Shown here: piece by piece, positions 136-34,880 of the stretch
How the letters are laid out: every line of letters begins with the position of its first letter
Numbering within the stretch: position 1 is the first letter of the stretch
UHGV virus genome: UHGV-0004901
Length of the DNA stretch: 38,194 nucleotides
Origin: a virus
Direction: 5' to 3' (one strand)
The notes under the pieces: generated by a model
The model's database searches: none
What the model was told of the DNA's origin: nothing
The model's input: the letters and a program-made list of their open reading frames with translations, nothing else
Position numbers and translations under genes: made by a program

Positions 136-150
136 TTACCTTAAAGGTAT
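136..150. promoter_or_regulatory. Operator-like palindrome TTACCTTAAAGGTAT upstream of the integrase gene, nested inside a longer inverted repeat (TGACGGTAT ... ATACCGTCA, about 128..165)
   Basis: Direct reading; member of the TTACC-N5-GGTAA family found at 14 or more sites in the window. Confidence 0.5.
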
Positions 151-192
151 ACTCTCATACCGTCATGAAAATGGTTTCTATACGGGTGAATT

Positions 193-1443
193 GTGCTTAC
201 CGATACAAAATTAAAAAACCTCAAGCCGCAGGACAAACTGTATAAGGTCTCCGATCGTGACGGGCTGTATGTAGCTGTGCTTACGTCAGGCACGGTCTCG
301 TTTCGCTATGACTACCGTATCAACGGTCGCCGCGAAACACTGGTAATCGGGCAGTATGGGCGTGACGGTATCAGCCTGGCAGAAGCGCGAGAAGAACTGA
401 TTGCTGCAAAGAAGCTGCTTAAAGCAGGCCAGTCGCCGGCTGCGGCTAAACGTGACGGTATCAAAAAGATTCGTGGTGCCGAGACGTTTGCGGTACATAC
501 CGACAGTTATATGAAACACGTCATCCTGGCTGACAGTACCCGCGCAATGAAGCAGGCGGTGATCGACCGTGACATACTTCCGGTTCTTGGCAACAAAATG
601 ATGGCTGAAATTACCACATCGATGGTTCGTGATTTGTGTGACCGGATTGTCGAACGCGGTGGTCGGGCAACAGCAGTACAGGCCAGGGAGATTATCAGCA
701 GCGTATACCGTCACGCCAATGACCGTGGTCATGGTTTGTTTAATCCTGCGGCTGACATTAAACCTTCGTCTATCGCCATATTTAAACCACGAGAGCGAAC
801 ACTGACACCAGAAGAAATTGGCCTGTTCTTCCGCACGCTGGATGCCATTGGTGCTATGGGCACTATGAAAATGGCTTTAAAACTGGTGCTTATCACTATG
901 GTTCGTAAGGGCGAATTCACCAATGCAACGTGGGATGAAATAGATTTTAAAAAATGGACATGGACAATTCCTCCAGACCGCATGAAGGGAAGCCGGGCGC
1001 ACGTTATTTACCTGCCTAAACAGGCACAGGATATATTGGTCGGGTTGCAGATGTGCGCTGGTGGAAGTGAATATCTGGTTCCTGGTCGTTACAATTTCCG
1101 GAAGCCATTATCTAATGCCGCGCTGAACTCTCTGATCGACAGAACGGTGAAAATAATAAATGAAGATGGTGAGCATATTCAGGACTTCACCGTACACGAT
1201 ATGCGCCGTACAGCCAGTACGTTGTTGCATGAGGCTGGTTATCCTTCAGACTGGATTGAAAAGGCTCTGGCACATGAGCAGAAAGGTGTGCGCGCCGTAT
1301 ATAACAAAGCGGAATACGCCAGACAGCGCGCCTACATGTTGCAGCAGTGGGCCGATATGATTGATTCCTGGATTAACGGGGAGCATACGGATCTGATTCC
1401 GTTCTCCCCGTCGAAGTTTGAGAAGTGGATGGCGGGGGAATAA
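193..1443 (+). CDS. int: Tyrosine integrase, P4-like, with N-terminal arm-binding domain (GTG start)
   Basis: 416-aa ORF; N-terminus LTDTKLKNLKPQDKLYKVSDRDGLYVAV...FRYDYRINGRRETL is typical of P4-type integrase arm domains; C-terminal ...HDMRRTASTLL...Y catalytic region. Confidence 0.9.
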   Translation: MLTDTKLKNLKPQDKLYKVSDRDGLYVAVLTSGTVSFRYDYRINGRRETLVIGQYGRDGISLAEAREELIAAKKLLKAGQSPAAAKRDGIKKIRGAETFAVHTDSYMKHVILADSTRAMKQAVIDRDILPVLGNKMMAEITTSMVRDLCDRIVERGGRATAVQAREIISSVYRHANDRGHGLFNPAADIKPSSIAIFKPRERTLTPEEIGLFFRTLDAIGAMGTMKMALKLVLITMVRKGEFTNATWDEIDFKKWTWTIPPDRMKGSRAHVIYLPKQAQDILVGLQMCAGGSEYLVPGRYNFRKPLSNAALNSLIDRTVKIINEDGEHIQDFTVHDMRRTASTLLHEAGYPSDWIEKALAHEQKGVRAVYNKAEYARQRAYMLQQWADMIDSWINGEHTDLIPFSPSKFEKWMAGE

Positions 1444-1446
1444 CGT

Positions 1447-1641
1447 TTAATAGTTCTGCTGATTTTCTTCCATCTCGGCTTCTGCTGCCAGTGATTCAAT
1501 TTTATCTGTGAATATTGCTGACAGTGTTGCAAATTCAGCATCAGTGACAGCGGGAATTGGAACAAACCTGATCCCGCTGTGTGCAAGCATGTTTGCAGTT
1601 TCAAGGCATTTCCTTAAATCTGCTGGTGATGCCCTGTTCAT
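1447..1641 (-). CDS. Hypothetical small protein (64 aa), translationally coupled to the upstream methyltransferase gene (ATGA overlap)
   Basis: In-frame ATG at 1641 overlaps the methyltransferase stop; the longer 1447..1761 track ORF overlaps the methyltransferase in another frame. Confidence 0.35.
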   Translation of the reverse strand: MNRASPADLRKCLETANMLAHSGIRFVPIPAVTDAEFATLSAIFTDKIESLAAEAEMEENQQNY

Positions 1642-2288
1642 GCTGCACGCTCCCGCCCCTGGTTGTCTGTTGGTGACAGCGGAGCATTGCTGAATGCATT
1701 TGTTAATCCGGCAATATCCAACGCGTATCCTGGGTGTAGTTGCACTGCCGGGTCTTCGCACTGATTACCCCAAACATCGAAGCCATGAGACGACTGGCGG
1801 GCGAACAGTTCAATGCGAGAAACATCGCCTAACAATTGCACAAGTTTTTCACGAACGACATCTGGTTTTCTTGAATGCTCAAGCCGCGGTGCGGTAAATG
1901 ACTGAACGATACCTGCATTAATGCGCGGAGGTAGTTTTCCCTTTACCGCAAACAGGCAATCTTCACTGTTGGCGCGAGTCATGTGTCCCATCCCCATAAC
2001 CAGTTTATCTGGTTGTCGACTACCACATTTTATCCACGTGAAGCCCTTCATGGTCATCAGACGGAATCCCCAGGCTTCAACAACTTTTAGTGCTTCGAGT
2101 GGTTGTGTTGGCACCCACCACATGGCCAACAGACAGTTTTCACCGGCCAAATCCCACACAGGAAGGCGGCAGATATCCAGCACACTCATAACCGGATATT
2201 TAAAACCAGCACCGCGATTACCATCTGTGGCTTTGTCCCGGTATGCCCAGGGTGGATCTGCATAGATTAGTGTGTATTTCTTAGTCAT
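1638..2288 (-). CDS. DNA N6-adenine methyltransferase, MT-A70-like (orphan phage methylase)
   Basis: MTKKYTLIYADPPWAY... contains the DPPW catalytic motif; start trimmed to the ATG at 2288. Confidence 0.85.
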   Translation of the reverse strand: MTKKYTLIYADPPWAYRDKATDGNRGAGFKYPVMSVLDICRLPVWDLAGENCLLAMWWVPTQPLEALKVVEAWGFRLMTMKGFTWIKCGSRQPDKLVMGMGHMTRANSEDCLFAVKGKLPPRINAGIVQSFTAPRLEHSRKPDVVREKLVQLLGDVSRIELFARQSSHGFDVWGNQCEDPAVQLHPGYALDIAGLTNAFSNAPLSPTDNQGRERAA

Positions 2289-2580
2289 AAACCACCCCAC
2301 AACATCCTATGCCGCTATAGTCGCCACGGCGAAGGCCGTTACCTTTTGTGATACATTGGTCCCTGCGAACCGCGATCCTTGCACGTTCAACATCACCAGA
2401 AGCAACATCCATACACTGAAGCCAAAGGTGGGCGGCAACGCGGAACTGCCCTTTTTTCTCTCTTTCAATCGCGCGTTTTTCGATCTCTATCGCCGCAGGA
2501 GTAACGGCAACAACCTTTGAAGGGCTGCGCATTGAAACCTTGTTCATGTGATATTTTTCAAGTCGGCTTAACTTTCTCAC
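2281..2580 (-). CDS. Hypothetical protein
   Basis: ORF in the leftward operon, overlaps the methyltransferase start by 8 bp; no recognisable motif. Confidence 0.3.
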   Translation of the reverse strand: MRKLSRLEKYHMNKVSMRSPSKVVAVTPAAIEIEKRAIEREKKGQFRVAAHLWLQCMDVASGDVERARIAVRRDQCITKGNGLRRGDYSGIGCCGVVYD

Positions 2581-2689
2581 TTAATCCAACCCTCTCTGAA
2601 AATTAATGCCAGCAGATAAAGCCATGCTGAAACAGAGGCCAGGAATAAGTACCATCCTGACCATTTGCTCCAGTGCCTTAGCAGCACAC

Positions 2690-2938
2690 TCATGCCGCGT
2701 TGCTCACAGGACGATATACACGTTGCTGAACAGGAGGTTTTTTACCCTGGAACTCTGCCGGGCTTGCTGCCTGACGTTCATCAAGCCAACGCTCAACTTC
2801 ATCACGGTTCCATGCGCAGCGTTTATCGGTGATATACCAGCGTTTAGGAAATTCCCCTGCGCGCTCCATACGGTCGATAGTGCTCCATGACAGTGGCACC
2901 ACCGCCAGGAGTTCCTTCTTACCTAATGCACCTTTCAT
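2690..2938 (-). CDS. AlpA-family small DNA-binding protein (excisionase/regulator-like)
   Basis: 82-aa protein; LSWSTIDRMERAGEFPKRWYITDKRCAWNRDEVERWL resembles AlpA/Vis-type HTH. Confidence 0.6.
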   Translation of the reverse strand: MKGALGKKELLAVVPLSWSTIDRMERAGEFPKRWYITDKRCAWNRDEVERWLDERQAASPAEFQGKKPPVQQRVYRPVSNAA

Positions 2939-2987
2939 AAATACCTCTCTTGGTTGCAGTGCGGCGCGCGTGGCGCCGCGGTGGTGG

Positions 2988-3869
2988 TTACATAGATGTT
3001 TCGTTTAATTCTTCCCGACGAACGCTGTAAACGTCGGTGGCTTTTGCCAGCAGTTCGTCATCATCTGAAAGTTTTTGTGCAATGTATTTGTAAGCCTTAT
3101 CCAGTTCGGAGACAGTGCTGTAATTCATCGCTGCGCTGGTAAAGGCCATCAGCATTTCTTCTGGATCACGGCTATCCGCTTTACGCGTTTGCTCATCAGG
3201 CTTTTTCACTGGTTTAGCGTTGATCAGACTGTTCATTCCCGCAGCAGTAGTCGTTTGCGGAGTAATGTCTCGCTCAACGCGCGGTGCCGTTTCCTGTAAT
3301 TCGTCAGGGGTGTAAACACCGAGAAGTACATCAGGAGCGTGCAGGCGAGCCCATCGTTTCGTGCAAAGATAGGCAAGCTGCTGGCGCGGATCCTGTTCCC
3401 ACAATGGAGAGTTACGCACTCCGGCTTGCGCCATACTGATGGTAAGCTCACGGGGTTCTGCTTCTCCTTTAAGAACTGCTGACACAGTTACCGTCAGATT
3501 CGGTGATTTATCTGTTTTGCCGTTAACATTCGACCAGTCACCGCTCCAGCGATAATTCAGGCGTGTCGCTAGCAGGCTGGAAGAGGATACGACCGCGTTT
3601 ACCAACTGTGCTTCGTAGCCTAACGTTCCGTTTACCACATGCGTTTTCTGCGCCACGGCGAAAGGGTTCATTCCCCACTGTGCCGCCTGCATGGTCACCG
3701 CCAGACAATCGGCAGGTTTGCCTTCAAGATGTTTCGGTACAGTCGCTTTGCTTTGTGACATCAACTCCGCGAAACGCACCAGTTGATTCATGCCCTCCGG
3801 GCTGAAGATTGCCGCAGCAGTACCTACAGTTGCGCCTGGTTGTGATGTGATTGCGATATCATTGCTCAT
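2988..3869 (-). CDS. recT: RecT-family single-strand annealing recombinase
   Basis: 293-aa ORF; central region ...QAAQWGMNPFAVAQKTHVVNGTLGYEAQL... is typical of RecT; overlaps the upstream exonuclease gene by 4 bp. Confidence 0.85.
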   Translation of the reverse strand: MSNDIAITSQPGATVGTAAAIFSPEGMNQLVRFAELMSQSKATVPKHLEGKPADCLAVTMQAAQWGMNPFAVAQKTHVVNGTLGYEAQLVNAVVSSSSLLATRLNYRWSGDWSNVNGKTDKSPNLTVTVSAVLKGEAEPRELTISMAQAGVRNSPLWEQDPRQQLAYLCTKRWARLHAPDVLLGVYTPDELQETAPRVERDITPQTTTAAGMNSLINAKPVKKPDEQTRKADSRDPEEMLMAFTSAAMNYSTVSELDKAYKYIAQKLSDDDELLAKATDVYSVRREELNETSM

Positions 3870-4983: not shown

Positions 4984-4985
4984 TA

Positions 4986-5138: not shown

Positions 5139-5144
5139 AACTTG

Positions 5145-5234
5145 TTACCTCGGTCTGTTACCGTTGAGGTAATAATTATGCGTATCTGGTTTGATGTCAA
5201 TAGATATGAGTTAAAAAAATTACCCATTAGGTAA
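5145..5234. promoter_or_regulatory. Leftward early promoter/operator region (OL-like): TTACCGTTGAGGTAA (5158..5172), TTACCCATTAGGTAA (5220..5234) and an extra TTACCTC half-site (5145..5151)
   Basis: Palindromes read directly; lie between the repressor-gene terminator and the first leftward gene. Confidence 0.6.
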
Positions 5235-5243
5235 TCGAATAGG

Positions 5244-5271
5244 CAATAAAAAAGCCGCCAGAAGGCGGCTT
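5244..5271 (-). terminator. Rho-independent terminator after the repressor gene
   Basis: Minus-strand hairpin AAGCCGCC-TTCT-GGCGGCTT followed by a T-run. Confidence 0.65.
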
Positions 5272-5291: not shown

Positions 5292-5876
5292 TTATTGTTT
5301 GTTTTTTTCGTTCTGGTTGATGACAAATTCAATGTAACTTTCGATCTTTGCTTTCTCGGTTTCGGGTAACAATGCGTAGCGCGAGCGATCATAGTTGATG
5401 GTCGCAGGGTCGTGCGGGTGAATCAGTAATTCATAGCCGTGACGCCCGAATGCGGATGCAACATTCTCCAGGGTGGAAATGGAAACGCTGACCTCATTGT
5501 TTAACAGGCGGCTGATTGTCACCTGGGCGACGCCGGATGCGCGGTGTAGTTTTCCCTGCGTTGAAAGGTCGCGGCTTTCGCTCATCCAGCGTTCCAGGTT
5601 GTGAGCCGCCAGCTGACCTATATCACTCGGGCCGACAGGCTGAAAACCTTCCTGAGAAAGCGAGCGATCGATATCAAGCCAGTTACGGGGTTTATTGGCG
5701 GCAGCTTCAATTTTTCGCGCAACCTGGTCGCCGATAACCTTCTTGCCAAGAGCCCAGCGGTTTACCAGATTTGCCTGAGTTCCAAGTTTTTCTGCCATCC
5801 GCGTCTGAACACCATTGAATTCACGGTCGATCAAGTCGTTGAGATTTTGCCTGCGGACGTCCTGGATACTTTTCAT
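5292..5876 (-). CDS. Immunity repressor (CI-like) with two HTH domains and no S24 peptidase domain
   Basis: 194 aa; two XRE-type HTH-like segments (…TRMAEKLGTQANLVNRWALGKK… and …ASGVAQVTISRLLNNE…); divergent from the Cro-like gene across an operator cluster. Confidence 0.7.
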   Translation of the reverse strand: MKSIQDVRRQNLNDLIDREFNGVQTRMAEKLGTQANLVNRWALGKKVIGDQVARKIEAAANKPRNWLDIDRSLSQEGFQPVGPSDIGQLAAHNLERWMSESRDLSTQGKLHRASGVAQVTISRLLNNEVSVSISTLENVASAFGRHGYELLIHPHDPATINYDRSRYALLPETEKAKIESYIEFVINQNEKNKQ

Positions 5877-5931: not shown

Positions 5932-5994
5932 TTACCCAACAGGTAAATGCACCTCATAGGTAACTATCCTTGATTTTTGTTACCTTATGGGTGA
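5932..5994. promoter_or_regulatory. Immunity switch operators (OR-like): TTACCCAACAGGTAA (5932..5946), GCACCTCATAGGTAA (5949..5963), TTACCTTATGGGTGA (5980..5994)
   Basis: Three tandem 15-bp palindromic sites between the divergent repressor and Cro-like genes. Confidence 0.7.
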
Positions 5995-6030
5995 ATATTT
6001 ATTATCTGAAATAAATATCAGGCAATAGCT

Positions 6031-6261
6031 ATGAGCGATAACGGACATTTCGATTTCAAAAAGCACTGGCTTGCACTTACTCCGGATGAGCGTGAAGCCT
6101 TCGCACAGGAAGCCGGAACGACGAGTCACTATATCCAGACTCACTTAACAGGTAAGCGCAAAATGCCAGGTAAAGTATTGATGAATGGGCTTTTTAAAGC
6201 CTGTAAAACAAGACAATGGCTGCGCTTAAAAGCAGAACTGGCATACTTCTTCTACTCATGA
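6031..6261 (+). CDS. Cro-like small DNA-binding protein
   Basis: 76 aa, divergent from the repressor across the operator cluster; HTH-like segment LTPDEREAFAQEAGTTSHYIQTHLTGKR. Confidence 0.55.
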   Translation: MSDNGHFDFKKHWLALTPDEREAFAQEAGTTSHYIQTHLTGKRKMPGKVLMNGLFKACKTRQWLRLKAELAYFFYS

Positions 6262-6282: not shown

Positions 6283-6308
6283 AGACCGCCACCCGGCGGT
6301 CTTTTCAT
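6283..6308 (+). terminator. Rho-independent terminator after the Cro-like gene (tR1-like)
   Basis: GACCGCC-ACCC-GGCGGTC hairpin followed by TTTTC. Confidence 0.6.
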
Positions 6309-6316: not shown

Positions 6317-6331
6317 GTACCTCAAAGGTAA
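6317..6331. promoter_or_regulatory. Operator-like palindrome GTACCTCAAAGGTAA downstream of the Cro terminator
   Basis: Direct reading. Confidence 0.45.
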
Positions 6332-6411
6332 TAAAAAACCAAATCTGGTTGATCTTTTTTTTGTGTCAGCACAAAATGACCGTAATCCCAATACTAATAA
6401 CAGGGCTTACC

Positions 6412-6627: not shown

Positions 6628-7467
6628 ATGAGCAGACATGCAACAGATTGGGCCTGGGAGACAGATCCAGGTAGCTCATCATTAAAGCTCATACTGCTCT
6701 CGATGGCTGACAGAGCCGATGAATATAACCTCTGCTACCCCAGCATAGAACGCCTCGTTAAAGACACTTGCCTGAATAAAAAAACCGTGCAGGCCGGGCT
6801 TATATCGCTCATGAAAATGGGGCTTATTTCAGATACCGGAGAGAGAAAGGGAGCGACAAAAAGAGTGCGGGTTTTCTCTCTTAATATAACCAAAAACGGG
6901 AACATTAAAGGCAACCGAGAGGGGGGCAATGAACCCGAAAACGGTAATGTTACCGAAAACGGGAATATACCCAAAAACGGGATGTTGAATGATCCCAAAA
7001 ACGGGATGTTGAATGATCCCAAAAACGGGATGTTGAATGATCCCAAAAACGGGATCCAGAACCAGTCATATAACCAGTCATTTAACCAAGAGAGGGAGAG
7101 CAGGACAAAAAACGGGGATTCTGTGCATCATGACCCCGGCGCAAACAACGCCGTGATGAATAACTTTGTTCCTCCTGGTGGGCCAGGGCAATTAGGCAAA
7201 TTTGTCATGCATGAACAATGGCAGCCATCAGATGACTTTCTTCGGAAAAGCTCATTGCAGGGGATCTACCTGGACAGTCTGCCAACGGCACAGGAACTTG
7301 CAGAGTTCAGAATTTACTGGATGGCTGAGGGTAAGGCATACCATCAGGCACAGTGGGAGCAGAAGCTGGCAAGGCGGCTGCAGATTAGCAGACAGAAGCA
7401 ATCAACATTACCTGATAACAACGTTCCGCACTGGAACAGCCCTGAAGCATGGGAGGATTTCTTGTGA
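6628..7467 (+). CDS. Replication initiator, lambda O-like (N-terminal winged-helix domain) with internal iterons
   Basis: N-terminal HTH-like domain; internal PKNGMLND repeats encoded by DNA iterons; followed by and overlapping a lambda P homolog. Confidence 0.75.
   Translation: MSRHATDWAWETDPGSSSLKLILLSMADRADEYNLCYPSIERLVKDTCLNKKTVQAGLISLMKMGLISDTGERKGATKRVRVFSLNITKNGNIKGNREGGNEPENGNVTENGNIPKNGMLNDPKNGMLNDPKNGMLNDPKNGIQNQSYNQSFNQERESRTKNGDSVHHDPGANNAVMNNFVPPGGPGQLGKFVMHEQWQPSDDFLRKSSLQGIYLDSLPTAQELAEFRIYWMAEGKAYHQAQWEQKLARRLQISRQKQSTLPDNNVPHWNSPEAWEDFL
6890..7060. repeat. Iteron array (putative origin of replication): 7 copies of CC(C/G)AAAACGG(G/T)A at 18-24 bp spacing, including 3 perfect 24-bp tandem copies
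   Basis: AAAACGG cores at 6893, 6938, 6956, 6974, 6998, 7022, 7046; followed by a second short direct repeat AACCAGTCAT(A/T)TAACCA (7059..7090). Confidence 0.7.
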
Positions 7468-8286: not shown

Positions 8287-8363
8287 TTACCCATCAGGTA
8301 ATAAAATATTCTAAACTCTATTGATTTCGTGTCTTATGTGGTTTTTAATTACCTCAGAGGTAA
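8287..8363. promoter_or_regulatory. Operator pair TTACCCATCAGGTAA (8287..8301) and TTACCTCAGAGGTAA (8349..8363), 62 bp centre to centre; the second overlaps the SD of the downstream gene
   Basis: Direct reading; same 62-bp spacing as the OL pair. Confidence 0.55.
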
Positions 8364-8366: not shown

Positions 8367-8711
8367 ATGAGAAAACAGATGCAGGCTCTTGGTCGACTCA
8401 AAACAGGCCAGATGAACAAAACAGAATCTGCGTATTGCCAGCATCTTGAGCAGCGTAAACGTGCAGGGGAAATCGCCTGGTATCGATTCGAGGGTATCAA
8501 GCTGCGGTTAGCTGATAACACGTTCTATACGCCAGATTTCGCTGTGATGCTCGCCACCGGAGAGATGGAACTGCACGAAGTGAAAGGTTTCTGGACCGAC
8601 GACGCCAGGGTGAAAACCAAAGTCGCCGCAGATCAGTATCCGTTCCGAATCATCGGGGTAACGGTTAAGCCAAAGAAAGCAGGTGGCGGATGGAAAATCG
8701 AAGAGTTCTGA
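8367..8711 (+). CDS. Small PD-(D/E)XK-like protein (DUF1064-like; possible nuclease/resolvase)
   Basis: 114 aa; ...YTPDFAVMLATGEMELHEVKG... fits a PD...E.K motif; family assignment from memory only. Confidence 0.45.
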   Translation: MRKQMQALGRLKTGQMNKTESAYCQHLEQRKRAGEIAWYRFEGIKLRLADNTFYTPDFAVMLATGEMELHEVKGFWTDDARVKTKVAADQYPFRIIGVTVKPKKAGGGWKIEEF

Positions 8712-11885: not shown

Positions 11886-11926
11886 GAGTAGATTATGCAT
11901 GATGAATTTGATGGGTTTTGAATACT

Positions 11927-11952
11927 GCCGCCAACTATGGCGGCTTTATTTT
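11927..11952 (+). terminator. Rho-independent terminator upstream of the packaging operon (tR'-like)
   Basis: GCCGCC-AACTAT-GGCGGC hairpin followed by TTTATTTT. Confidence 0.6.
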
Positions 11953-11956: not shown

Positions 11957-11988
11957 GGTACTATTACCACAACGGTAACTATTACCAC
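11957..11988. promoter_or_regulatory. Direct repeat GGTA(A)CTATTACCAC x2 immediately upstream of the terminase small subunit gene; contains everted half-sites GGTAA-N3-TTACC
   Basis: Direct reading. Confidence 0.4.
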
Positions 11989-11995
11989 GGTGGTT

Positions 11996-12592
11996 ATGAT
12001 GCCTGCTGAACCTAAAACCTATAAACGCAAATCAACGCAATTTAAGCCACTAACAGCAATGCAGGAGGCTTATTGCCAGTCATACATCAAAACGCCTGAA
12101 AACCAGACTCAGGCAGCGATTAACGCAGGATTCTCCCCAAATACAGCGGCAGTTAAAGCCAGTGTCATGATGCGCGATGAACGCATTCAAAAACGGATTG
12201 CCGAGCTGATGGAGGAGCGCAACAAACGAATGCGCGTCAGTGCCGATTACGTTCTTATGCGCCTGGTGGAGATCGACCAGATGGATGTGATCGACATCCT
12301 CAACGACGATGGGAGCCTTAAACCAATCCGTGAGTGGCCGAAAATCTGGCGCACTACGCTTAGTGGCTTTGATCTGTCATCGACCATCATGAACATGAAC
12401 GAGGATTCGATAGAGACAATCCTCAAAAAAATTAAATGGCCTGACAAGGTGAAGAACCTTGAGCTGATTGGTAAGCATGTTGATGTCAACGCGTTCAAAG
12501 AACGTCTGGATGTTAATGTGAATGTGACAATTGCTGATCGCATAGCAGCAGCCAGGAAGCGACTCAAAGAACGTCAGGATGGTAATCAGTGA
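11996..12592 (+). CDS. Terminase small subunit
   Basis: Position immediately upstream of the large subunit with a 4-bp overlap; start moved to ATG 11996 because the track ORF start at 11918 reads through a terminator. Confidence 0.65.
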   Translation: MMPAEPKTYKRKSTQFKPLTAMQEAYCQSYIKTPENQTQAAINAGFSPNTAAVKASVMMRDERIQKRIAELMEERNKRMRVSADYVLMRLVEIDQMDVIDILNDDGSLKPIREWPKIWRTTLSGFDLSSTIMNMNEDSIETILKKIKWPDKVKNLELIGKHVDVNAFKERLDVNVNVTIADRIAAARKRLKERQDGNQ

Positions 12593-14709: not shown

Positions 14710-14786
14710 TGGCGTGGCATGCAGGATTCGAACCTGCGACCAACCGCTTAGAAGGCGGTTGCTCTGTCCAACTGAGCTAATGCCAC
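14710..14786 (-). tRNA. tRNA-Arg, anticodon UCU (decodes AGA), phage-encoded
   Basis: Folded by hand: 7-bp acceptor stem GUGGCAU/AUGCCAC, D-arm GCUC..GAGC, anticodon stem ACCGC/GCGGU with loop CUUCUAA, T-arm GCAGG-UUCGAAU-CCUGC, discriminator G and encoded CCA. Confidence 0.85.
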
Positions 14787-15108: not shown

Positions 15109-15123
15109 TTACCTGAAAGGTAA
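15109..15123. promoter_or_regulatory. Operator-like palindrome TTACCTGAAAGGTAA upstream of the virion gene block
   Basis: Direct reading; followed at 15165..15187 by a CATATGTGGTT-N5-GGTAATA element. Confidence 0.5.
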
Positions 15124-15213
15124 TAATTCGTGCGTTAAATGTCAACTGTCTACGATAAATAAATCATATGTGGTTAAATTGGTAATAATTTAATTGCGTA
15201 CGGAGTCATTGAT

Positions 15214-19605: not shown

Positions 19606-19941
19606 ATGTCAGGTGAGAAACCAAGATACCGCGTTCTGCGCCTCTCTCATATCCATAACACTCTGTGGCCGGAGGGGGCAGAAATCGAATACGAAGGTGA
19701 GCCTGGTAGCGCACTGGAACCTGTTAACGATGCAGCCAGACAGGCAAAAGCAAAAGTTGCAGGAAAGGTGTCAATGGCAGCAACCAGCACCAAAATCATC
19801 AACGATGTGTCAGATGATGGTGAACTGGATAAGCTCCGTGAAGAGTACGAATTGCTCTTTAACGAGAAGCCACACCATAACGCCAAAGCCGAAACGCTCC
19901 GCGAGAAGATCGCAGATAAGCGTAAAGAACTGGGCGTGTAA
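19606..19941 (+). CDS. Hypothetical protein
   Basis: ATG 19606 with SD AAGGTGA; track ORF started at GTG 19597. Confidence 0.4.
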   Translation: MSGEKPRYRVLRLSHIHNTLWPEGAEIEYEGEPGSALEPVNDAARQAKAKVAGKVSMAATSTKIINDVSDDGELDKLREEYELLFNEKPHHNAKAETLREKIADKRKELGV

Positions 19942-24083: not shown

Positions 24084-26704
24084 TGCCAGTCGTACCAACA
24101 GTATCCGGACGTCAGGTTGAGAGTCGTGGAGTTCAGTCAGCAGGCTTGCAGACGTTTTCTCAGCCAGGTATTGGTGATGCTTTTGTTCGGGCAGGGACAG
24201 AGGCAATTGATGTTTTTGGTCAGGCAAAACAGCGTGCCAATATTGCCTTTGTTCAGGAGGCATCCCTTAAACTCAGTCAGACAGGCAGTGATCTGCTGAA
24301 TAATCCTGAAACAGGATTGCTTAACCTGAAAGGGAAAAATGCTATTGGAAAAGGCCATGAGTATACGCAGCAGTTTGATGCTCAGGTTGAACAACTGGCT
24401 ATGTCGCTGCCAGATGAACAGGCTCGTAATGCTTTCATGCAGCAGGCGCAGCAACAGCGTATTCAGTTCACTACGCAGGCCGGGAGGTACGAAATAGGAC
24501 AGGTTCGCCAGTATGAGGCGGATATGCAGGATGCGACACTAAAAAACCTATCGATGCAGTTCCGTAACCCGACAATGGCAAACCAGGCAGGATTGAAGGC
24601 ATATCATAGCATCATCGCTTACGGCGAAGCCCACGGCCAGAGTCAGGAAGAGATCGAACAGAACTGGGTTTCGTGGCGCGAGAATGCCGCGAACGGTGCG
24701 GCGGAGGCGTGGTATGTGCCGATGTATCAACAGATGATGGGGCCGAACGGCAAGATTGAGGTAACCGATACACCGAGTGAGGCGCAGTTATTCTCTGCAA
24801 TAATCTGGCAGGAGAGTGGCGGAAATCAGTACGGAAAGGACGGAACACCTCTGGTGTCGCCAAAAGGCGCTGTTGGCGTAGCGCAGGTGACGGAAGATAC
24901 TGGCCCCGAAGCTGCCCGCCTTGCTGGTGTGCCGTGGGACCGAGATAAATGGTTGAATGACCCGCGCTATAATGCCCGCTTGGGGCAAGCTTATTTCGGC
25001 GCGCAGATGAAGAAATACGACAATAACCCGGTTCTGGCAGTAGCTGCCTATAACGCTGGCCCAGGAAAGGTTGACGGCTGGATTAAACAGATTGGCGATC
25101 CGCGCACAGGCGAAGTCAGTAACGCCCAGTTTGCCGCAGCTATCCCATACGACGAGACGCGCAATTATGTGGCAAAAGTAACTGGCAGTGCTGGAGCTAT
25201 TCCTGGATCTGCGACGATGGAAAACCTCATCGCACAGCCATTCTGGAACGCCATGAGTCCGGACAAAAAGTCGCAGATGATGAGCAAGGTTGCTGGCATG
25301 TACGACATGCAGGCTTCAGCCGGTCGCGTTGCGCTACAGAGTCGAATGCAGGACGACCTATCCAAAATTGAGGCCGGTAAGCAGGTGACGCCTATTTCAG
25401 CGCACGAATGGGCCGCCGTTATGCCGCTTCAGGCAGCGCCTGCCGAGCGCCTGCAGATGGAAAAAACCTTCCAGCAATACCAGCAGGCAATGACGCTACA
25501 ACCTGTTTATCAGACCATCATGCAGGGCAACGTCCAGCAGGGTACCGCCGCCGTGCAGGCAATGGCACCGCAGGAAAACGACCCTGACTTTAAATACAAA
25601 GCCGAGCTTTATGCATCGGCAAAGGTCAAGCTTGGGCAGGTACTGAAGGCGCGGGAAGCGGATCCGGGGGTATGGCTGCAACAAAACTCTCCGGTTGTGC
25701 AGGCTGCATTCCAGCAGTACCTCAATGACCCTTCATCTGGTGAATACCTAGTTTCCCGCATACAGTCTGAAAAAGACCGCCTGGGGATAATGAGCAAAAA
25801 AGTTTTACCGGAGTCCATGGTTAACGACGTACTGCAGCGTATTGACAACACGCAGGAATCTAGCGTAAAGGCCATTCAGTCGGTGGCGCAGTCGTTCGGC
25901 AAATACTCGGATCAGGTGATGTGGCAGGTGCAAAATAAAGCATTCCCAGCTTTAAAGGTTGTAATGTCTACAGAAAACCAACGGGCAGCAGATGCGTTGT
26001 GGCAAATACGGAATGTATCTACTTCTGATTTGAGATCTGGTTTGGATAAAAACCAGGCAGACAGTGCAGACTCATCGTGGACAGATCAATTTAAAGATTT
26101 TTCTTCAACTCTTATTCCTCAGAGAAATGGTGCTGAAAACTGGACTATTTATAACGAGCAGGGAAAACGCTTGACCTACAACTACATGCAGCGCGGAATG
26201 TCGGCGTCTGATGCAGCAAAACAGGCGTATCAGGACCTTCTCGGCGAGCAGTACCAGACCAATGGCACTTGGCGGCTACCTAAGCGTGCAGGGATAGATA
26301 TTCGTGACGTTAACGATGGTGCCAATGCGTATCTGAAAAACCTGTCAGCAGATCAGATTATGCCGCTTATTGGTGACCCAAGGCTACCTGATGAGGTCAA
26401 CCGTGAGCAGAGTATCTCCCGCATTCGTGATAATGCGCAGTGGGTTACCAACAGCGACGAAACAGGACTTACCCTGATGCTCAACGGGCTGATCGTCAAC
26501 GGTGCCGACGGCAACCCGATTACGGTGCCGTTCAACGATCTGGCGAAACTGGGAACAACCAACCGATCAGTATGGAACAGCATTACCAAGTTCATTGATA
26601 CTCCGGTGAAATATACTCCCGGACAGTCTAAGGAATACAGCGCAGAAAGTCAGCGCGACAACCTGATTAACATTTTCCAGAACGGCCAGCAATCAGGACG
26701 ATAA
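24083..26704 (+). CDS. Internal virion (ejection) protein with lytic transglycosylase domain
   Basis: Start at ATG 24083 (SD GGAGGA); SLT motifs ...IIWQESGGNQYG... and ...AAYNAGPGKV... Confidence 0.8.
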   Translation: MPVVPTVSGRQVESRGVQSAGLQTFSQPGIGDAFVRAGTEAIDVFGQAKQRANIAFVQEASLKLSQTGSDLLNNPETGLLNLKGKNAIGKGHEYTQQFDAQVEQLAMSLPDEQARNAFMQQAQQQRIQFTTQAGRYEIGQVRQYEADMQDATLKNLSMQFRNPTMANQAGLKAYHSIIAYGEAHGQSQEEIEQNWVSWRENAANGAAEAWYVPMYQQMMGPNGKIEVTDTPSEAQLFSAIIWQESGGNQYGKDGTPLVSPKGAVGVAQVTEDTGPEAARLAGVPWDRDKWLNDPRYNARLGQAYFGAQMKKYDNNPVLAVAAYNAGPGKVDGWIKQIGDPRTGEVSNAQFAAAIPYDETRNYVAKVTGSAGAIPGSATMENLIAQPFWNAMSPDKKSQMMSKVAGMYDMQASAGRVALQSRMQDDLSKIEAGKQVTPISAHEWAAVMPLQAAPAERLQMEKTFQQYQQAMTLQPVYQTIMQGNVQQGTAAVQAMAPQENDPDFKYKAELYASAKVKLGQVLKAREADPGVWLQQNSPVVQAAFQQYLNDPSSGEYLVSRIQSEKDRLGIMSKKVLPESMVNDVLQRIDNTQESSVKAIQSVAQSFGKYSDQVMWQVQNKAFPALKVVMSTENQRAADALWQIRNVSTSDLRSGLDKNQADSADSSWTDQFKDFSSTLIPQRNGAENWTIYNEQGKRLTYNYMQRGMSASDAAKQAYQDLLGEQYQTNGTWRLPKRAGIDIRDVNDGANAYLKNLSADQIMPLIGDPRLPDEVNREQSISRIRDNAQWVTNSDETGLTLMLNGLIVNGADGNPITVPFNDLAKLGTTNRSVWNSITKFIDTPVKYTPGQSKEYSAESQRDNLINIFQNGQQSGR

Positions 26705-30952: not shown

Positions 30953-30953
30953 T

Positions 30954-31325
30954 ATGAACAGAATTATATTAATGATTATTCTTATGCTTTTAGTTGTAAA
31001 ATCTTTTGCAGATACTACCTCACCGTTAATGATTCAGCCTAAAAATGGGGAAACACTGGAGGATTCTAAAAAGCATACAATGGAATATTTTGGATGTATA
31101 AAAGGGCAGGTCGTAAAATACGCTAAGACAGGAGAAAGTGTTGATTCTATATCCAAAGCTTCGGTTGTGTCATGCGAGTCGTACATACAAAAGATTGCTG
31201 AATCAAATATATACTATTTAAATTCCTCTCAAGACGGTAAGCGGAAATTTATTGGAAGGCTTAAATCAGATGGTGAAAATTTAGCAACGAAATTTGCTAT
31301 GGATGAAAAGCTAAAAAATAAATAG
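30954..31325 (+). CDS. Secreted/periplasmic protein with signal peptide (moron, about 33% GC)
   Basis: N-terminal MNRIILMIILMLLVVKSFA signal peptide; two Cys in the mature part; very AT-rich compared with about 52% GC for the flanking virion genes. Confidence 0.55.
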   Translation: MNRIILMIILMLLVVKSFADTTSPLMIQPKNGETLEDSKKHTMEYFGCIKGQVVKYAKTGESVDSISKASVVSCESYIQKIAESNIYYLNSSQDGKRKFIGRLKSDGENLATKFAMDEKLKNK

Positions 31326-31333
31326 GTGACTAC

Positions 31334-31630
31334 ATGCAAGCGATAGGATTCATTGTTTATATCGTCGTTGGTCTTTTTCAGTTGGCAGCAATTATGGCTG
31401 GGCTTGAATCATGGTGGGGATTGCACTGGATAATTGCAGCCCCCATTGCTTTCATCGTGAGCTATATTCCATTTGTTGGAGCGATTGTTGGTATGGTTGG
31501 CGCTGTGGATGTATGGCGGTGGGAGTGGTGGCAGGCTGGCCTTCTCTTCTTTGGTGGGATCATCTTTGCTATTGTCTGCGGTGGAATGTCATCATTTTTC
31601 GAATGGCTATCATTCAGAAAAGGAACGTGA
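31334..31630 (+). CDS. Small integral membrane protein (3-4 predicted TM segments); candidate holin or exclusion protein
   Basis: 98 aa, hydrophobic throughout, Trp-rich loops; stop codon embedded in a GTGACATGTCAC palindrome. Confidence 0.5.
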   Translation: MQAIGFIVYIVVGLFQLAAIMAGLESWWGLHWIIAAPIAFIVSYIPFVGAIVGMVGAVDVWRWEWWQAGLLFFGGIIFAIVCGGMSSFFEWLSFRKGT

Positions 31631-31638
31631 CATGTCAC
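31627..31638. repeat. 12-bp perfect palindrome GTGACATGTCAC (copy 3 of 3)
   Basis: Direct reading; overlaps the TGA stop of the 31334..31630 gene in the same register as copy 1. Confidence 0.8.
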
Positions 31639-31663
31639 AGGCCGCTTTCGCGGCCTTGTTTTT
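31639..31663 (+). terminator. Rho-independent terminator ending the late/moron transcript
   Basis: AGGCCGC-TTTC-GCGGCCT hairpin followed by TGTTTTT. Confidence 0.7.
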
Positions 31664-31823
31664 AACGAATGCCACCGCCGCCCGGGCGGGAATCCGCAGA
31701 ACGCCCACCGCAGCGGGAGCCGTCAGCGGCAGTATCGCTGTCGTGCTGACAACGACCGGCAAAGGCCTGAGTTGAAGCTACCAGAGACAACAAAACGAAC
31801 AGTGCAGCAAATGCTTTTTTCAT
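31662..31823 (-). CDS. Small protein with Sec-type signal peptide (53 aa), speculative
   Basis: MKKAFAALFVLLSLVASTQAFA then a 31-aa Gly/Arg/Cys-containing tail; possible promoter TTGACG-16-TATAGA upstream; weak SD. Confidence 0.3.
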   Translation of the reverse strand: MKKAFAALFVLLSLVASTQAFAGRCQHDSDTAADGSRCGGRSADSRPGGGGIR

Positions 31824-31894
31824 TGTGACATTTCCATCTATAAGCCACCTCAATGTGGCGTCAATGAGTGTAGCACTGACTTTTGTTTCGTCCA

Positions 31895-31917
31895 CAAAAA
31901 AGCCCTCGCCGCGGGCT
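31895..31917 (-). terminator. Rho-independent terminator after the 31917..32456 gene
   Basis: Minus-strand AGCCC-GCGGCGA-GGGCT hairpin followed by a T6 run. Confidence 0.6.
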
Positions 31918-32456
31918 TACCAAAACTTGTACCACGGGGATTTATCCTTCAATGGACAATCCTTCCATCGTGTGGCTAACCATTCATATTCTTTAAAATA
32001 TGTGTTTATGTTTTCTTTTTCTCTAATAGCTTGTATAAGAGGTAGCGCAATCTGATAGTTATTTACAACGGAGCTGTAAAATACTTCCTTAATCATGGTC
32101 TCATCATAAGTTTTCCGCTTCACGCTCACAGCCATGCGTTCGTAGAAACCTAGACAGTAAATTATTTCTCTCTTCTCTATCTTTTCTTCATCCGTAAGAT
32201 CAGCCTGCCCATTGCTTGGATACATATAAGAGCGGAATGATTTGTTCGACTCGTGAATGCGGCGCATAGTAGATAGGCCTTTCTTATAATCTACATCAAA
32301 CCTGCTTTCACCAAGGAATACTGAAGTGTGTACTTTTCTCGCTGTATTTACATTATAAATAATAGTAGCGATAGCTATGAACAAGCCAAGCGAAACCGCG
32401 ACTGCACTTACGATTTGAGCCACAGCCATGGCAAATTGCATTTCTTCACTTAACAC
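31917..32456 (-). CDS. Membrane-anchored protein of unknown function (single N-terminal TM, about 36% GC); candidate superinfection-exclusion/defence protein
   Basis: GTG start with SD GGAG; TM segment AMAVAQIVSAVAVSLGLFIAIATII; AT-rich; occupies the position held by sieA in P22-type genomes. Confidence 0.55.
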   Translation of the reverse strand: MLSEEMQFAMAVAQIVSAVAVSLGLFIAIATIIYNVNTARKVHTSVFLGESRFDVDYKKGLSTMRRIHESNKSFRSYMYPSNGQADLTDEEKIEKREIIYCLGFYERMAVSVKRKTYDETMIKEVFYSSVVNNYQIALPLIQAIREKENINTYFKEYEWLATRWKDCPLKDKSPWYKFW

Positions 32457-32474
32457 AAACTGTCTCCAGACATG

Positions 32475-32496
32475 AAAACGGGGCCTAATGGCCCCG
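32475..32496 (-). terminator. Hairpin/terminator between the antirepressor gene and the 31917..32456 gene
   Basis: Minus-strand ACGGGGCC-ATTA-GGCCCCGT hairpin followed by TTTT. Confidence 0.5.
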
Positions 32497-32585
32497 TCAT
32501 TAAACTATCCGAATGTTAAACGCCTTCGTACTCGTCAAATTTTCTCATGTGGGCTCCTCCTGTATCGGTGCCTAATCGCTATGGA

Positions 32586-32600
32586 TCACCCGTAAGGTAA
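32586..32600. promoter_or_regulatory. Operator-like palindrome TCACCCGTAAGGTAA
   Basis: Direct reading. Confidence 0.45.
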
Positions 32601-32672
32601 TAGTACTCTATTCACCACCCTGTCTGCAATCGTACAGAATTATTTAAAAGCACATCCATGTGCCACCGCCCG

Positions 32673-33383
32673 TCAGAAGAACCCTGCCTTGTCGTTGATG
32701 TATTCCGCGTGCGTCTGGATATCACGCAGGCATTTGCTCACACCGACGATGTAGCAGAACATGGTGGTCAGCTCCGCCGCCGCGCCCGATACGTCGTGCC
32801 CGTCTTCCTGTAACTGGTTCAGCAGATTCATCAGCAGTGAGTTCTCCGTCAGGCCGAGAACACCAGACGGCGAGTGAATCAGGCTGCGGTAGCCGGGCTT
32901 CAGCGGGGCGCTGTAGGTTTTGTTCTCTATCTTCATTGCCTGCATCACTGCTGATGCTGTGGCGTTTGCAACCTGGTCGGCAACCATCTTTATGCGTTCT
33001 TCCTGCGGGAGCGAGTTTTTAATGTAACTTCCGGTGCGGCGGATCTGAGGAAGAACCTCACCTGTAACCCATTTACGAAAGCGGTAGGGGATAGTGCCTG
33101 GTGTCACTGCGTCGCGGCAGCGGAGGATCAGTGTGTAGAGGCCTGACTCGGAGATGATGTTGATCTCTTTTACTCGGCTGTCAAAAATTGCACGATGTTC
33201 ATGCCCTATGTTGAACATAGACCTTTCATCATCATCCAGTTTTTCAAGTGCTTGGGTGACGTTTTGGATACGCAGCGCACTACAAACGTCTTGGGCTACA
33301 AACCATGGTTGGCCATCGATAATGATGGAACGGATAGGGTTAACAGATTCAAATTTGAAGATGGCAGTTTGAGCATTAGCCAT
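32673..33383 (-). CDS. ant: Antirepressor with Bro-N/KilA-N-type N-terminal domain
   Basis: ...FESVNPIRSIIIDGQPWFVAQDVCSALRIQN...GLYTLILRCRDA... matches Bro-N; start at ATG 33383 with SD GGAG. Confidence 0.8.
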   Translation of the reverse strand: MANAQTAIFKFESVNPIRSIIIDGQPWFVAQDVCSALRIQNVTQALEKLDDDERSMFNIGHEHRAIFDSRVKEINIISESGLYTLILRCRDAVTPGTIPYRFRKWVTGEVLPQIRRTGSYIKNSLPQEERIKMVADQVANATASAVMQAMKIENKTYSAPLKPGYRSLIHSPSGVLGLTENSLLMNLLNQLQEDGHDVSGAAAELTTMFCYIVGVSKCLRDIQTHAEYINDKAGFF

Positions 33384-33652
33384 GGTGGTTATCTCCACTT
33401 AGTGATTTTAATCACCACCGCAACGCCAATTACTGGTGGTGAACTGGACAAGGTTGGCGTACCGGCCTAAGTGGTACCGGCGTCCTTTCGGACCCCTGCC
33501 CAGCCCACCATAATTCGGATATAGCTGTGCTTAACGCATAAAAAAACCACGTCTGGCGTGGTATGCGCCACTTAGTAACTCGGGACGCCAATCCCGGCAC
33601 TGGATTTTGCCAGTACCCGATTACTATGGCACAAGAGGAGTGCGATGTAAAT

Positions 33653-33760
33653 TTACCGCAAAGGTAATGATAAACGCGAAGAAATATTAAAATCAACCGT
33701 ATTTGGTTGGTTGCGTTTAACGCTTGATCACCTGAAAGCAAGATATTACCTTTAAGGTAA
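33653..33760. promoter_or_regulatory. Two operator palindromes in the divergent ant / 33781 promoter region: TTACCGCAAAGGTAA (33653..33667) and TTACCTTTAAGGTAA (33746..33760)
   Basis: Direct reading. Confidence 0.55.
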
Positions 33761-33780
33761 TGTTATTGTGAGGAAAAGCA

Positions 33781-34509
33781 ATGGAAGTTTTCTGGATAGT
33801 TGTTGGTGTGGTTGCGGTGATTATTTATGTTATCAACCAGAACAAGACTAAGATCTCTGATCGTACGGTCGTTAATCATAACAAAACGATAAAGACCGAA
33901 GATGGGGAGATAACGATTAATCGTACACAGGTGATAGAACACACCTCTACTCAGTTTCAAAAAACTGGAGGTAATGCGCCTAATATTTCCGCACCTCCTG
34001 CTTATGATAGTGCGGTAATCCAGACATATTATAAACAGCAGGAGTTAGCAAAAGAGAGGCAACTGATTCAGCCAAAGCCGTTTACAGCTGAGCTTCCACC
34101 TGGAGTGTCAACGCGTCCGGCATATCATGGAAGATTCCCTGGTGATGACATATCGTCTCAGTCATCTAAAAAAGCACCTCAGGCAGTATCAGAGCCAGCA
34201 AGAATACCTTCTGTATCGCCGCCAAAAGAAGAATCAGCTAACAGAGTTTCAAGTGGTAGCAAGCAGTGCTTGCGATGCAGAATAAACCTACCATATGAAA
34301 AATTCAGGAAATCGTCAAAAAATCCAGATGGATTGACTAAGTGGTGTGCAAGGTGTCTCGATGGCCCAAAGAATACACGCCATATGAAGTGGTGCCCAAT
34401 TTGTAATGTCCGCAGAAAACGAACCAGCTTTTACCCTAATAATCAAAATGCGGACGGATTAATGGCATGGTGCAAAACGTGCTGGGATGAGCACAAAGCG
34501 AAACGATAG
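33781..34509 (+). CDS. Membrane-anchored protein with two tandem CxxC...DGLxxWCxxC zinc-ribbon-like repeats (unknown function)
   Basis: N-terminal TM MEVFWIVVGVVAVIIYVI; C-terminal repeats CLRCRINLPYEKFRKSSKNPDGLTKWCARC and CPICNVRRKRTSFYPNNQNADGLMAWCKTC. Confidence 0.6.
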   Translation: MEVFWIVVGVVAVIIYVINQNKTKISDRTVVNHNKTIKTEDGEITINRTQVIEHTSTQFQKTGGNAPNISAPPAYDSAVIQTYYKQQELAKERQLIQPKPFTAELPPGVSTRPAYHGRFPGDDISSQSSKKAPQAVSEPARIPSVSPPKEESANRVSSGSKQCLRCRINLPYEKFRKSSKNPDGLTKWCARCLDGPKNTRHMKWCPICNVRRKRTSFYPNNQNADGLMAWCKTCWDEHKAKR

Positions 34510-34533
34510 GCCGCTCTTGCGGCCTTTAAATTT
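34509..34533. terminator. Hairpin/terminator between convergent genes
   Basis: GGCCGC-TCTT-GCGGCC followed by TTTAAATTT. Confidence 0.5.
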
Positions 34534-34789
34534 ACCGGGTTTGTTTTCGTAATTGTTCGGCACAATAGTCGAGATGTGTTTGCAGATCCCGCATAGACAT
34601 CTGTGACCTGGTGACGTAGTTAATCAGTGCAGTCAGTTCGGCAAGTGGGCCATCGACATTAAATCCATCCTTATCGAGATCCCGGAGTAATTTCATCAAG
34701 TGCGATCCCTCCACCAGTGATCTGACGCCTCCCGGCGTGTGAATCCTTTCGGTAAATCCGTCTTCCAGTGGATAGTGATACTGCTGCAT
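34532..34789 (-). CDS. Antirepressor C-terminal-domain paralog (85 aa, stand-alone)
   Basis: ...GGVRSLVEGSHLMKLLRDLDKDGFNVDGPLAELTALINYV...RDLQTH... aligns by eye with the Ant C-terminus ...SGVLGLTENSLLMNLLNQLQEDGHDVSGAAAELTTMFCYI...RDIQTH...; strong SD GGAGAAG before ATG 34789. Confidence 0.5.
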   Translation of the reverse strand: MQQYHYPLEDGFTERIHTPGGVRSLVEGSHLMKLLRDLDKDGFNVDGPLAELTALINYVTRSQMSMRDLQTHLDYCAEQLRKQTR

Positions 34790-34865
34790 CTTATCTTCTC
34801 CATACGATAACTGTATATTTATACAGTAACAAATAATTTGTTTGCTATCCAGCACGTTTTGCAAA

Positions 34866-34880
34866 TCACCTGAAAGGTAA
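34866..34880. promoter_or_regulatory. Operator-like palindrome TCACCTGAAAGGTAA between the Ant-C paralog and the tail fibre gene; followed by CATATGTGGTT-N5-GGTAATA (34910..34932)
   Basis: Direct reading. Confidence 0.5.

Follow-up and report, generated by a model that had tools for sequence, protein, structure and literature searches.

The stretch of DNA analysed here is the viral sequence UHGV-0004901 (38,194 nucleotides, hereafter the window), which carries a prophage of the phiV10 type (Uetakevirus, epsilon15-like podoviruses). A 15-bp palindrome, TTACC-N5-GGTAA, occurs in it at a total of 16 sites in 10 intergenic regions. The repetition of this palindrome is real, and we consider it highly probable that its copies serve as operators for Rep, the repressor of the prophage (gene at 5292..5876, minus strand), that they head nearly every transcription unit, and that induction proceeds via the antirepressor Ant under the control of LexA. 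Judged from the sequence, the sites belong to the operator family of the Rep proteins of the phages epsilon15 and SPC32H; the finding is sound and, in substance, already known in Uetakevirus. Across the immunity region, the window shares about 98% identity with Escherichia phage phiV10, and a whole-genome comparison showed the window to be collinear from int through the tail-fibre gene; the oac and lysis genes of the prophage fall beyond its right end.

Nine exact copies of the motif, starting at positions 5158, 5220, 5932, 8287, 8349, 11964, 15109, 33653, and 33746, were found in the window, whereas 0.04 are expected according to dinucleotide-preserving shuffles. If one mismatch is allowed, the count rises to 15 versus 0.56 expected, a number which none of 100 shuffles reached; the additional sites are 136 (GGTAT), 5980 (GGTGA), 6317 (GTACC), 11982 (GGTTA), 32586 (TCACC), and 34866 (TCACC). 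Matches with two mismatches are mostly due to chance (about 21 seen, about 10.5 expected). The sixteenth site, 5949 (GCACCTCATAGGTAA, with GCACC as its left half), belongs to this class and lies 17 bp from 5932; it is credible because a second exact site stands at the same place in epsilon15 (33358), SPC32H (34407), and Klebsiella phage BUCT711 (6419). The choice of the motif does not depend on prior selection by eye: when all 4-mer dyads with gaps of 0-12 were enumerated, TACC-N5-GGTA ranked first by a wide margin in the window, in epsilon15, and in the Klebsiella relative (p ~1e-16 to 1e-17).

The copies avoid genes. In the curated annotation of epsilon15, all 11 exact sites and 14 of the 15 sites with up to one mismatch are located in the non-coding 6.6% of the genome (binomial p ~1e-13 and ~5e-16, respectively); likewise, 10 of 10 exact sites in SPC32H are intergenic. 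For the window, the bias persists with p = 7e-8 under a deliberately over-inclusive cover of open reading frames (ORFs). The sites scored as coding by this cover fall in spurious or over-extended ORFs; for example, terS begins, like its epsilon15 counterpart, with the ATG at 11999, and the segment 33430..33741 is the isrK/C4 RNA region, so that the ORF called there mechanically is spurious. These results bear out the enrichment and the intergenic location put forward in a preliminary description of this DNA, as well as the identical 62-bp spacing of the pairs 5158/5220 and 8287/8349. Its list of 14 sites was sound for 13 at the level of one mismatch, the remaining one being 5949, but it was incomplete, since the exact site 11964 and its neighbor 11982, both upstream of terS, had been missed.

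One line of evidence connecting the motif with Rep is the protein itself, which matches Rep of SPC32H (PDB 5D50) over its full length (residues 1-190, E = 4e-42). It contains two helix-turn-helix (HTH) domains and no S24 peptidase domain; Pfam reports HTH families only. Its C-terminus matches the Ant-binding tetramerisation domain of the SPC32H protein. Overall, the Rep proteins of the group are only about 42% identical; the N-terminal helix, in contrast, is conserved, and its NLVNRW stretch is invariant across five relatives. According to secondary sources, SPC32H Rep is a tetramer binding palindromic DNA (PMC9638917), and SPC32H Ant removes it from DNA via the C-terminal tetramerisation domain, whereby Rep is disassembled (PMC9638917, PMC9986798). 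A repressor identical to that of the window is carried by at least 80 IMG/VR contigs and by the near-identical phage ZX5; when it was overexpressed in the latter, the transcripts for endolysin and holin fell by more than 99.9% (PMC9782041). This result agrees with a broad control, but a direct effect does not follow from it.

Another line is the GenBank record of epsilon15 (AY150271.2), which contains seven features labeled as protein binding sites, "repressor; lysogeny". All of them are copies of the motif: one each upstream of terS, of the portal block, and of the tailspike gene, three at the left operator (OL), and one after the replication genes. Epsilon15 has 14 intergenic copies if up to one mismatch is allowed, so that the annotation covers seven of 14; it leaves out, among others, three copies at the right operator (OR), one ahead of the lysis block, and another ahead of int. 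In the record of phiV10, the sites are not annotated at all. Text searches of the literature for the motif string and for repressor binding sites of Uetakevirus returned nothing relevant. The description of the epsilon15 genome by Kropinski et al. in 2007 reportedly lists a 17-bp consensus of this type as putative operators.

OL1 (5158..5172, exact) covers the start region of the early leftward promoter PL, which consists of TTGACA (5195-5200), a spacer of 17 nt, and AATTAT (5172-5177) on the minus strand and scores at the 100th percentile of the background; OL2 (5220..5234, exact) is found 62 bp away, upstream of the -35 element. The same arrangement exists on the plus strand after the replication genes. 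There, TTGATT (8321-8326), 17 nt, and TTTAAT (8344-8349) form a promoter at the 99.9th percentile, which is conserved in six genomes; one exact operator (8349..8363) adjoins the -10 element, and the motif scan placed its exact partner at 8287..8301, again 62 bp upstream and beyond the -35 element. Two leftward promoters possess a single operator at this position. Motif and promoter scans located an exact site (33653..33667) at the promoter of the isrK/C4/Bro-N antirepressor unit (TTGATT 33691-33696, 18 nt, TATCAT 33667-33672; 100th percentile), and a site with one mismatch (32586..32600) was found at the promoter (TTGCAG 32624-32629, 18 nt, TACTAT 32600-32605; 99.5th percentile) of an accessory gene (31917..32456, minus strand) with a Pfam DUF4760 domain. 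A comparison of the accessory genes with models of defence systems gave no match.

At all four promoters, the last base of the -10 hexamer is also the first T of the operator, read in the direction of transcription (AATTAT|TACC, TTTAAT|TACC, TATCAT|TACC, and TACTAT|TACC, in the order given above). In a promoter scoring that admitted only -10 elements ending on the operator, the 99th percentile of random positions was exceeded by eight of 32 site orientations, compared with 0.3 expected. It had been proposed that the right half of the palindrome repeatedly overlaps a -10 or a Shine-Dalgarno sequence. The first part is not a general rule, given the geometry just described; as to the second, 8349 is the only operator that extends over a Shine-Dalgarno sequence, namely the one preceding the first gene (start at 8367), and does so in all six genomes.

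The early rightward promoter PR deviates from this scheme. It can be read either as TTGATT (5970-5975) with GAATAT (5993-5998) or as TTGTTA (5977-5982) with TATTAT (6000-6005), and the OR1-like operator (5980..5994, one mismatch) is located inside the spacer. The OR2-like site (5949..5963) and the exact OR3-like site (5932..5946), the latter nearest to the start of rep, follow farther upstream, towards rep. Directly downstream of OR1, over the -10/+1 region of PR, there is also an 8-bp inverted repeat, ATATTTAT / ATAAATAT (5995-6002 and 6011-6018). It is conserved in Enterobacter phage Tyrion, whereas epsilon15 has a different palindrome there, and it could be the site of another regulator.

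This arrangement suggests how repression might work. Rep would be a non-cleavable repressor of the SPC32H/epsilon15 type, and the 15-bp dyad, with half-site centers 10 bp apart, would be read by a pair of its N-terminal HTH domains. As a tetramer contains two such pairs, it could bind two operators simultaneously. At PL and at the post-replication promoter, where one operator covers the -10/+1 edge and the second lies 62 bp upstream, a single tetramer could thus clamp the core promoter: 62 bp are approximately six helical turns, so that both sites would face the same side of the helix and enclose the -35/-10 region. At PR with its spacer operator, and at the isrK/C4/Bro-N and DUF4760 promoters, whose single operator begins at the last base of the -10 element, Rep may compete with RNA polymerase at the -10/+1 edge.

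The pairs are also relevant for a different assignment, namely that the sites are bound mainly by the small Cro-like regulator encoded at 6031..6261 (plus strand, 76 amino acids) or by another phage regulator, Rep being directed to a subset or to a different sequence. Classical Cro proteins share operators with their repressor. The protein considered here belongs to PHROG 35 ("transcriptional repressor"), and its putative recognition-helix stretch GTTSHYIQTHLT is invariant across five relatives, in the same genomes that keep the motif; however, the spacing of 62 bp is easier to reconcile with a repressor that has two pairs of DNA-binding domains than with a protein of 76 residues, the curators of epsilon15 gave the sites to the repressor, and SPC32H Rep is reported to bind palindromic sites as a tetramer (PMC9638917). 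We regard this assignment as quite improbable. The Cro-like protein may share some of the sites, for example those at OR, but is not likely to be the sole binder.

Comparison with 11 related phages and prophages, which come from eight genera, showed that the motif is kept between genes at syntenic positions. The set includes phiV10, epsilon15, SPC32H, Tyrion, and BUCT711, as well as GTDB prophages of Superficieibacter, Erwinia, Klebsiella, Citrobacter, and Scandinavium. Two pairs with a spacing of 61-63 bp, one at OL and one after the replication genes, are present in every one of the 11 genomes. The half-sites are fixed, while the 5-bp center and the flanks drift: among 80 near-identical IMG/VR prophage loci with a 100% identical Rep, 730 sites have 81 different sequences, and the center is widely variable. 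An N-terminal Rep helix of the form (N/T)LVNRW is common to all genomes bearing the motif. In distant GTDB homologues of the Rep N-terminus that have a different helix (Paraburkholderia, Hydrogenovibrio, and Thiomicrospira), the motif is absent, with at most one match at one mismatch, and no alternative operator could be recognized near these genes. An unrelated lambdoid Pseudomonas phage also lacks the motif, having at most one match at one mismatch and none in a comparable arrangement. A protein search with the N-terminal domain of Rep returned only near-identical fragments.

The divergence of Rep is concentrated in its middle and C-terminal, Ant-binding parts, and both helix and operator are kept across the eight host genera. 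Immunity specificity in Uetakevirus may therefore depend on the pairing of Rep and Ant more than on the operator sequence.

An identical motif in phages of eight host genera could as well be the target of a host transcription factor common to Enterobacterales. In this case, however, one would have to explain why the sites flank rep and cro in a classical OL/OR arrangement and overlap PL and PR, and why their presence tracks Rep-type prophages and no comparable arrangement is found in the unrelated lambdoid phage. No E. coli factor is known to us that recognizes TTACC-N5-GGTAA; the operator of GntR contains TTACCGGTAA, without a gap. A host factor is accordingly judged very improbable. The fixed half-sites speak against the idea that the palindromes act as RNA or DNA hairpins in processing, pausing, or termination. 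Each palindrome can fold into a hairpin of 5-8 bp, and RNase III sites are annotated in some of the same intergenic regions of epsilon15, but the hairpins are weak (-2 to -6.4 kcal/mol), and all copies keep one half-site sequence rather than co-varying. In the variants TCACC, GTACC, GGTGA, and GGTAT, one pair is lost without compensation, and every one of them is found again at its position in some or all of the relatives. Moreover, both orientations with respect to transcription are represented among the sites, some of which are located upstream of transcription starts. Among the alternatives considered here, we give this one the least credence.

Several of the remaining sites are less clear. 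The site before the replication genes (6317..6331, one mismatch) comes after the terminator of the cro-like gene (6283-6302) and is syntenic in phiV10, Tyrion, and BUCT711. A similar situation is found ahead of terS, where a terminator (11927-11944) is followed by an exact site (11964..11978), whose epsilon15 homologue (12-27) is annotated as a repressor binding site, and 18 bp further by the site with one mismatch (11982..11996). In the phiV10 record, terS is annotated from a TTG (window position 11918; position 41 of the phiV10 locus, L001), that is, upstream of the terminator and both operators. This start is probably over-extended, as the ATG at 11999 matches the starts in epsilon15, SPC32H, and Tyrion.

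The exact site 15109..15123 separates the leftward tRNA-Arg/p03 unit from the rightward portal/virion block, and its homologue in epsilon15 (2931-2947) is an annotated repressor binding site. It adjoins a leftward promoter-like element, TTGACA (15140-15145), 17 nt, TACCTT (15117-15122), which is conserved in five of six genomes and points at the gene of tRNA-Arg(tct) (14710..14786, minus strand); SPC32H annotates a tRNA-Arg at the same place. In phiV10, this tRNA (L001 2856-2929) overlaps the hypothetical coding sequence PhiV10p04 (2672..2923), which is probably not a real gene. The site 34866..34880 (one mismatch) is located midway between the divergent ant and tail-fibre units; its epsilon15 homologue (19895-19911) is also annotated, and it adjoins a promoter-like TAGACA-17-GATATT that points leftward to ant and is present in the phiV10 lineage only. 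Two further sites have to be mentioned: the exact copy 33746..33760, 21 nt upstream of the ORF 33781..34509 and 93 bp upstream of 33653, and the operator-like site 136..150 (TTACC-N5-GGTAT), 43 nt upstream of int, which is the least certain member of the set.

To the right of 15109 and 34866, at a distance of 40-55 bp, all six genomes contain a conserved block consisting of (C/T)CATATGTGGTT, 7 nt, and TAATAA or TAATAG. In the lysis-block region of the relatives, the same block is followed by TATAAT or TATGAT; a conserved -35 element is missing there.

Several observations weigh against the interpretation of all these sites as operators of Rep. That Rep occupies them is something we infer from sequence, and the association of helix and motif is one-sided; it cannot separate Rep from the equally conserved Cro-like protein. 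If the blocks described above are late promoters, the operators at 15109, at 34866, and at the lysis site of the relatives are centered near -65 to -80, which makes direct occlusion unlikely. By six-genome alignment and promoter scoring, no convincing promoter was found at 136, 6317, and 11964/11982. Finally, the site 136 overlaps arm-type repeats of the integrase: it is located between inverted copies of the 10-bp sequence GTGACGGTAT (127-136 and 157-166), which is annotated as integrase binding site in epsilon15 and occurs five times in the window instead of 1.6 times as expected (also at 362-371, 452-461, and 705-714, these three being inside the int coding sequence). The epsilon15 record does not mark the homologue of 136 as a repressor site; its deviant right half GGTAT is kept in all six aligned genomes, with a variable center.

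The absence of promoters at 136, 6317, and 11964, the arm repeats around 136, and the proximity of 11964/11982 to terS would also fit a more restricted view, according to which only the OL/OR sites and those abutting promoters are functional, whereas 136, 6317, 11964/11982, 15109, and 34866 are leftovers or serve the architecture of the phage attachment site (attP) or packaging. Solitary sites, however, stand at the same positions in at least four of six aligned genomes with fixed half-sites and variable centers and flanks, which argues for selection on binding, and the copies at terS, portal, and tailspike are annotated as repressor sites by the epsilon15 curators. This makes the restricted view unlikely, if less so than the assignment to the Cro-like protein.

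For the broader reading, in which Rep acts at all sites, the copies behind terminators would head the replication genes and terS, and others the virion block and tRNA-Arg, the tail fibre and ant, the lysis block of the relatives, and possibly int. Repression from solitary sites might be due to bridging, to an action on the leftward promoters, or to roadblocks behind the terminators. Consensus sites of the integration host factor (IHF), which are annotated near solitary operators in epsilon15, were not found near those of the window. With respect to the regulon postulated in the preliminary description, one type of operator for the phage repressor, extending far beyond OL and OR, is well supported by synteny, promoter architecture, and the annotation of epsilon15. 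This holds for the early, antirepressor, and accessory units; for the late genes, with operators about 65-80 bp upstream of the candidate promoters, and for the integrase, whose site lies among arm sites, the situation is less clear.

The candidate late promoters share a second element, approximately (C/T)CAWATNTGGTT, with a palindromic core CCATATATGG in some relatives. It was located at 15164-15175, 34909-34920, 8332-8343, 6339-6350, 33695-33708, and 5180-5191, at about 24745-24756 in phiV10 (L001), and at 24750-24761 in a relative (L002). At the portal, tail-fibre, and relatives' lysis blocks, it precedes a -10-like hexamer by 7 nt, with no conserved -35 element; further copies are located in the spacers of PL and of the post-replication promoter. 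The window contains 26 matches with up to two mismatches versus 10.6 expected, and epsilon15 shows no genome-wide enrichment. In combination with the -10 hexamer, the element looks like an activator-dependent late promoter, reminiscent of those of P1. An antiterminator of the AlpA type was considered as its reader and rejected as a direct analogy: the AlpA of P. aeruginosa is a larger protein and reads a 6-bp GGGACG element (PMC9371919), and the 82-residue AlpA-family protein encoded here resembles an excisionase. Readings of the late-promoter block as a sigma-54 or an extended -10 promoter fitted poorly on inspection.

How repression would be lifted can be deduced from the antirepressor genes. 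The small antirepressor gene ant (34532..34789, minus strand, in-frame ATG at 34789) encodes a protein of the SPC32H type that is 86% identical to SPC32H Ant. A LexA box, AACTGTATATTTATACAGTA (34809..34828), with one mismatch to the consensus and without a second match in the window, overlaps the -10 element TATAAA (34818-34823, minus strand) of the ant promoter. In a lysogen, Rep is expected to shut down or dampen each unit separately; DNA damage would lead to cleavage of LexA, synthesis of Ant, and the removal of Rep from DNA.

A second module would be controlled by the promoter at 33653. Directly downstream, on the same minus strand, follow an isrK-like RNA (33540-33616; Rfam RF01394, 63.5 bits) and a C4 antisense RNA (33432-33515; RF01695, 66 bits), both above the gathering score, as leader of a gene for a Bro-N/Ant-family antirepressor-like protein (32673..33398; Pfam Bro-N, E = 1e-19; PHROG 130 "anti-repressor Ant", E = 2e-57). 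The order of operator, isrK, C4, and Bro-N gene is the same in phiV10 and Tyrion, whereas epsilon15 lacks both the module and its site. In a Uetakevirus, this unit resembles immI of P1 or the isrK module of Gifsy. The prophage thus seems to have two antirepressor inputs, a LexA-gated Ant and a Bro-N protein gated by Rep and a C4-type RNA.

One can go further and conceive a layered immunity like that of P1 in a 39-kb podovirus. Tetramers would clamp the promoters at the 61-63 bp pairs, the solitary operators at the tRNA, terminase, virion, tail-fibre, lysis, and int positions would act by long-range bridging, the two antirepressor inputs (LexA-Ant and the Bro-N Ant gated by operator and C4 RNA) would be independent, and the late promoters would need a putative activator reading the second conserved palindrome (approximately CCATATRTGGTT), which precedes the -10 element by 7 nt. 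We propose this complete scheme tentatively; that it applies in all its parts is doubtful, albeit conceivable.

Apart from the operators, the replication gene 6628..7467 contains 3.6 perfect copies of a 24-bp unit in tandem (6970-7055), with arrays of 18-bp and 12-bp repeats on the flanks (6933-7088 in total). By analogy with lambda O, these repeats are probably origin iterons inside an initiator gene.

What this analysis adds to the existing annotation is a fuller list of sites, the conservation of the pairs spaced by 61-63 bp, a rule for the -10 element, which ends on the operator, the operator-gated C4/isrK unit, and a candidate late-promoter element. The regulon that Rep is likely to control is thereby mapped site by site in a very common type of E. 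coli prophage; phages of the phiV10 type also serve for the typing of O157:H7 and as reporter phages for it. Among the predictions are that the 61-63 bp pairs are tetramer clamps, that an RNA-gated antirepressor similar to immI is under the control of Rep, and that the DUF4760 gene and the ORF 33781 are silent in the lysogen. The general view of phage repression is unchanged: operators scattered over the genome are an established feature of P1 and L5, and the sites themselves already carry an annotation in epsilon15.

The closest known systems are those of epsilon15 and SPC32H. The dyad, (A)TTACC-N5-GGTAA(T), is identical, the sites including the 61-63 bp pairs are syntenic, the adjacent Rep is homologous over its full length with a conserved N-terminal HTH domain, and Ant is encoded under a LexA box. 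Unlike epsilon15 and SPC32H, this prophage has extra operator-bearing units, namely isrK/C4/Bro-N, DUF4760, and the ORF 33781..34509. The divergent rep and cro genes with three OR sites and two or three OL sites over PR and PL resemble the CI/Cro switch of lambda; in contrast to CI, Rep lacks an S24 domain for autocleavage, reportedly forms a tetramer, and would be inactivated via Ant, and its presumed sites are not confined to OL and OR but occur at 10 or more further places. Dispersed operators, with many repressor sites in short intergenic regions, are also characteristic of mycobacteriophage L5, whose stoperators are asymmetric 13-mers in one orientation that reside inside transcribed regions and block elongation. 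Multiple asymmetric operators are noted in a further report (PMC1934351). The sites considered here differ from the gp71 stoperators of L5/L1 in being symmetric and in occupying, in several cases, the -10/+1 positions of promoters.

With P1, the similarity is one of organization. Its repressor C1 has 22 dispersed operators at many separate units (PMC8546580), and its immI region (c4-icd-ant), with a C1-controlled promoter, the c4 RNA, and ant, corresponds to the operator, C4 RNA, and Bro-N gene of this prophage, where a C4 RNA likewise lies between a putatively repressor-controlled promoter and an antirepressor gene. None of the searches performed indicated a relationship between Rep and C1, although a direct comparison with C1 was not made. 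P1 is a 94-kb plasmid prophage and not a 39-kb integrating podovirus, and its operator is the asymmetric 17-mer ATTGCTCTAATAAATTT (PMC8546580), whereas the site described here is a symmetric dyad. For the latter reason, the system is not a member of the P1 C1 family, but it works like it: one repressor with operators throughout the genome, and a protein antirepressor in place of cleavage.

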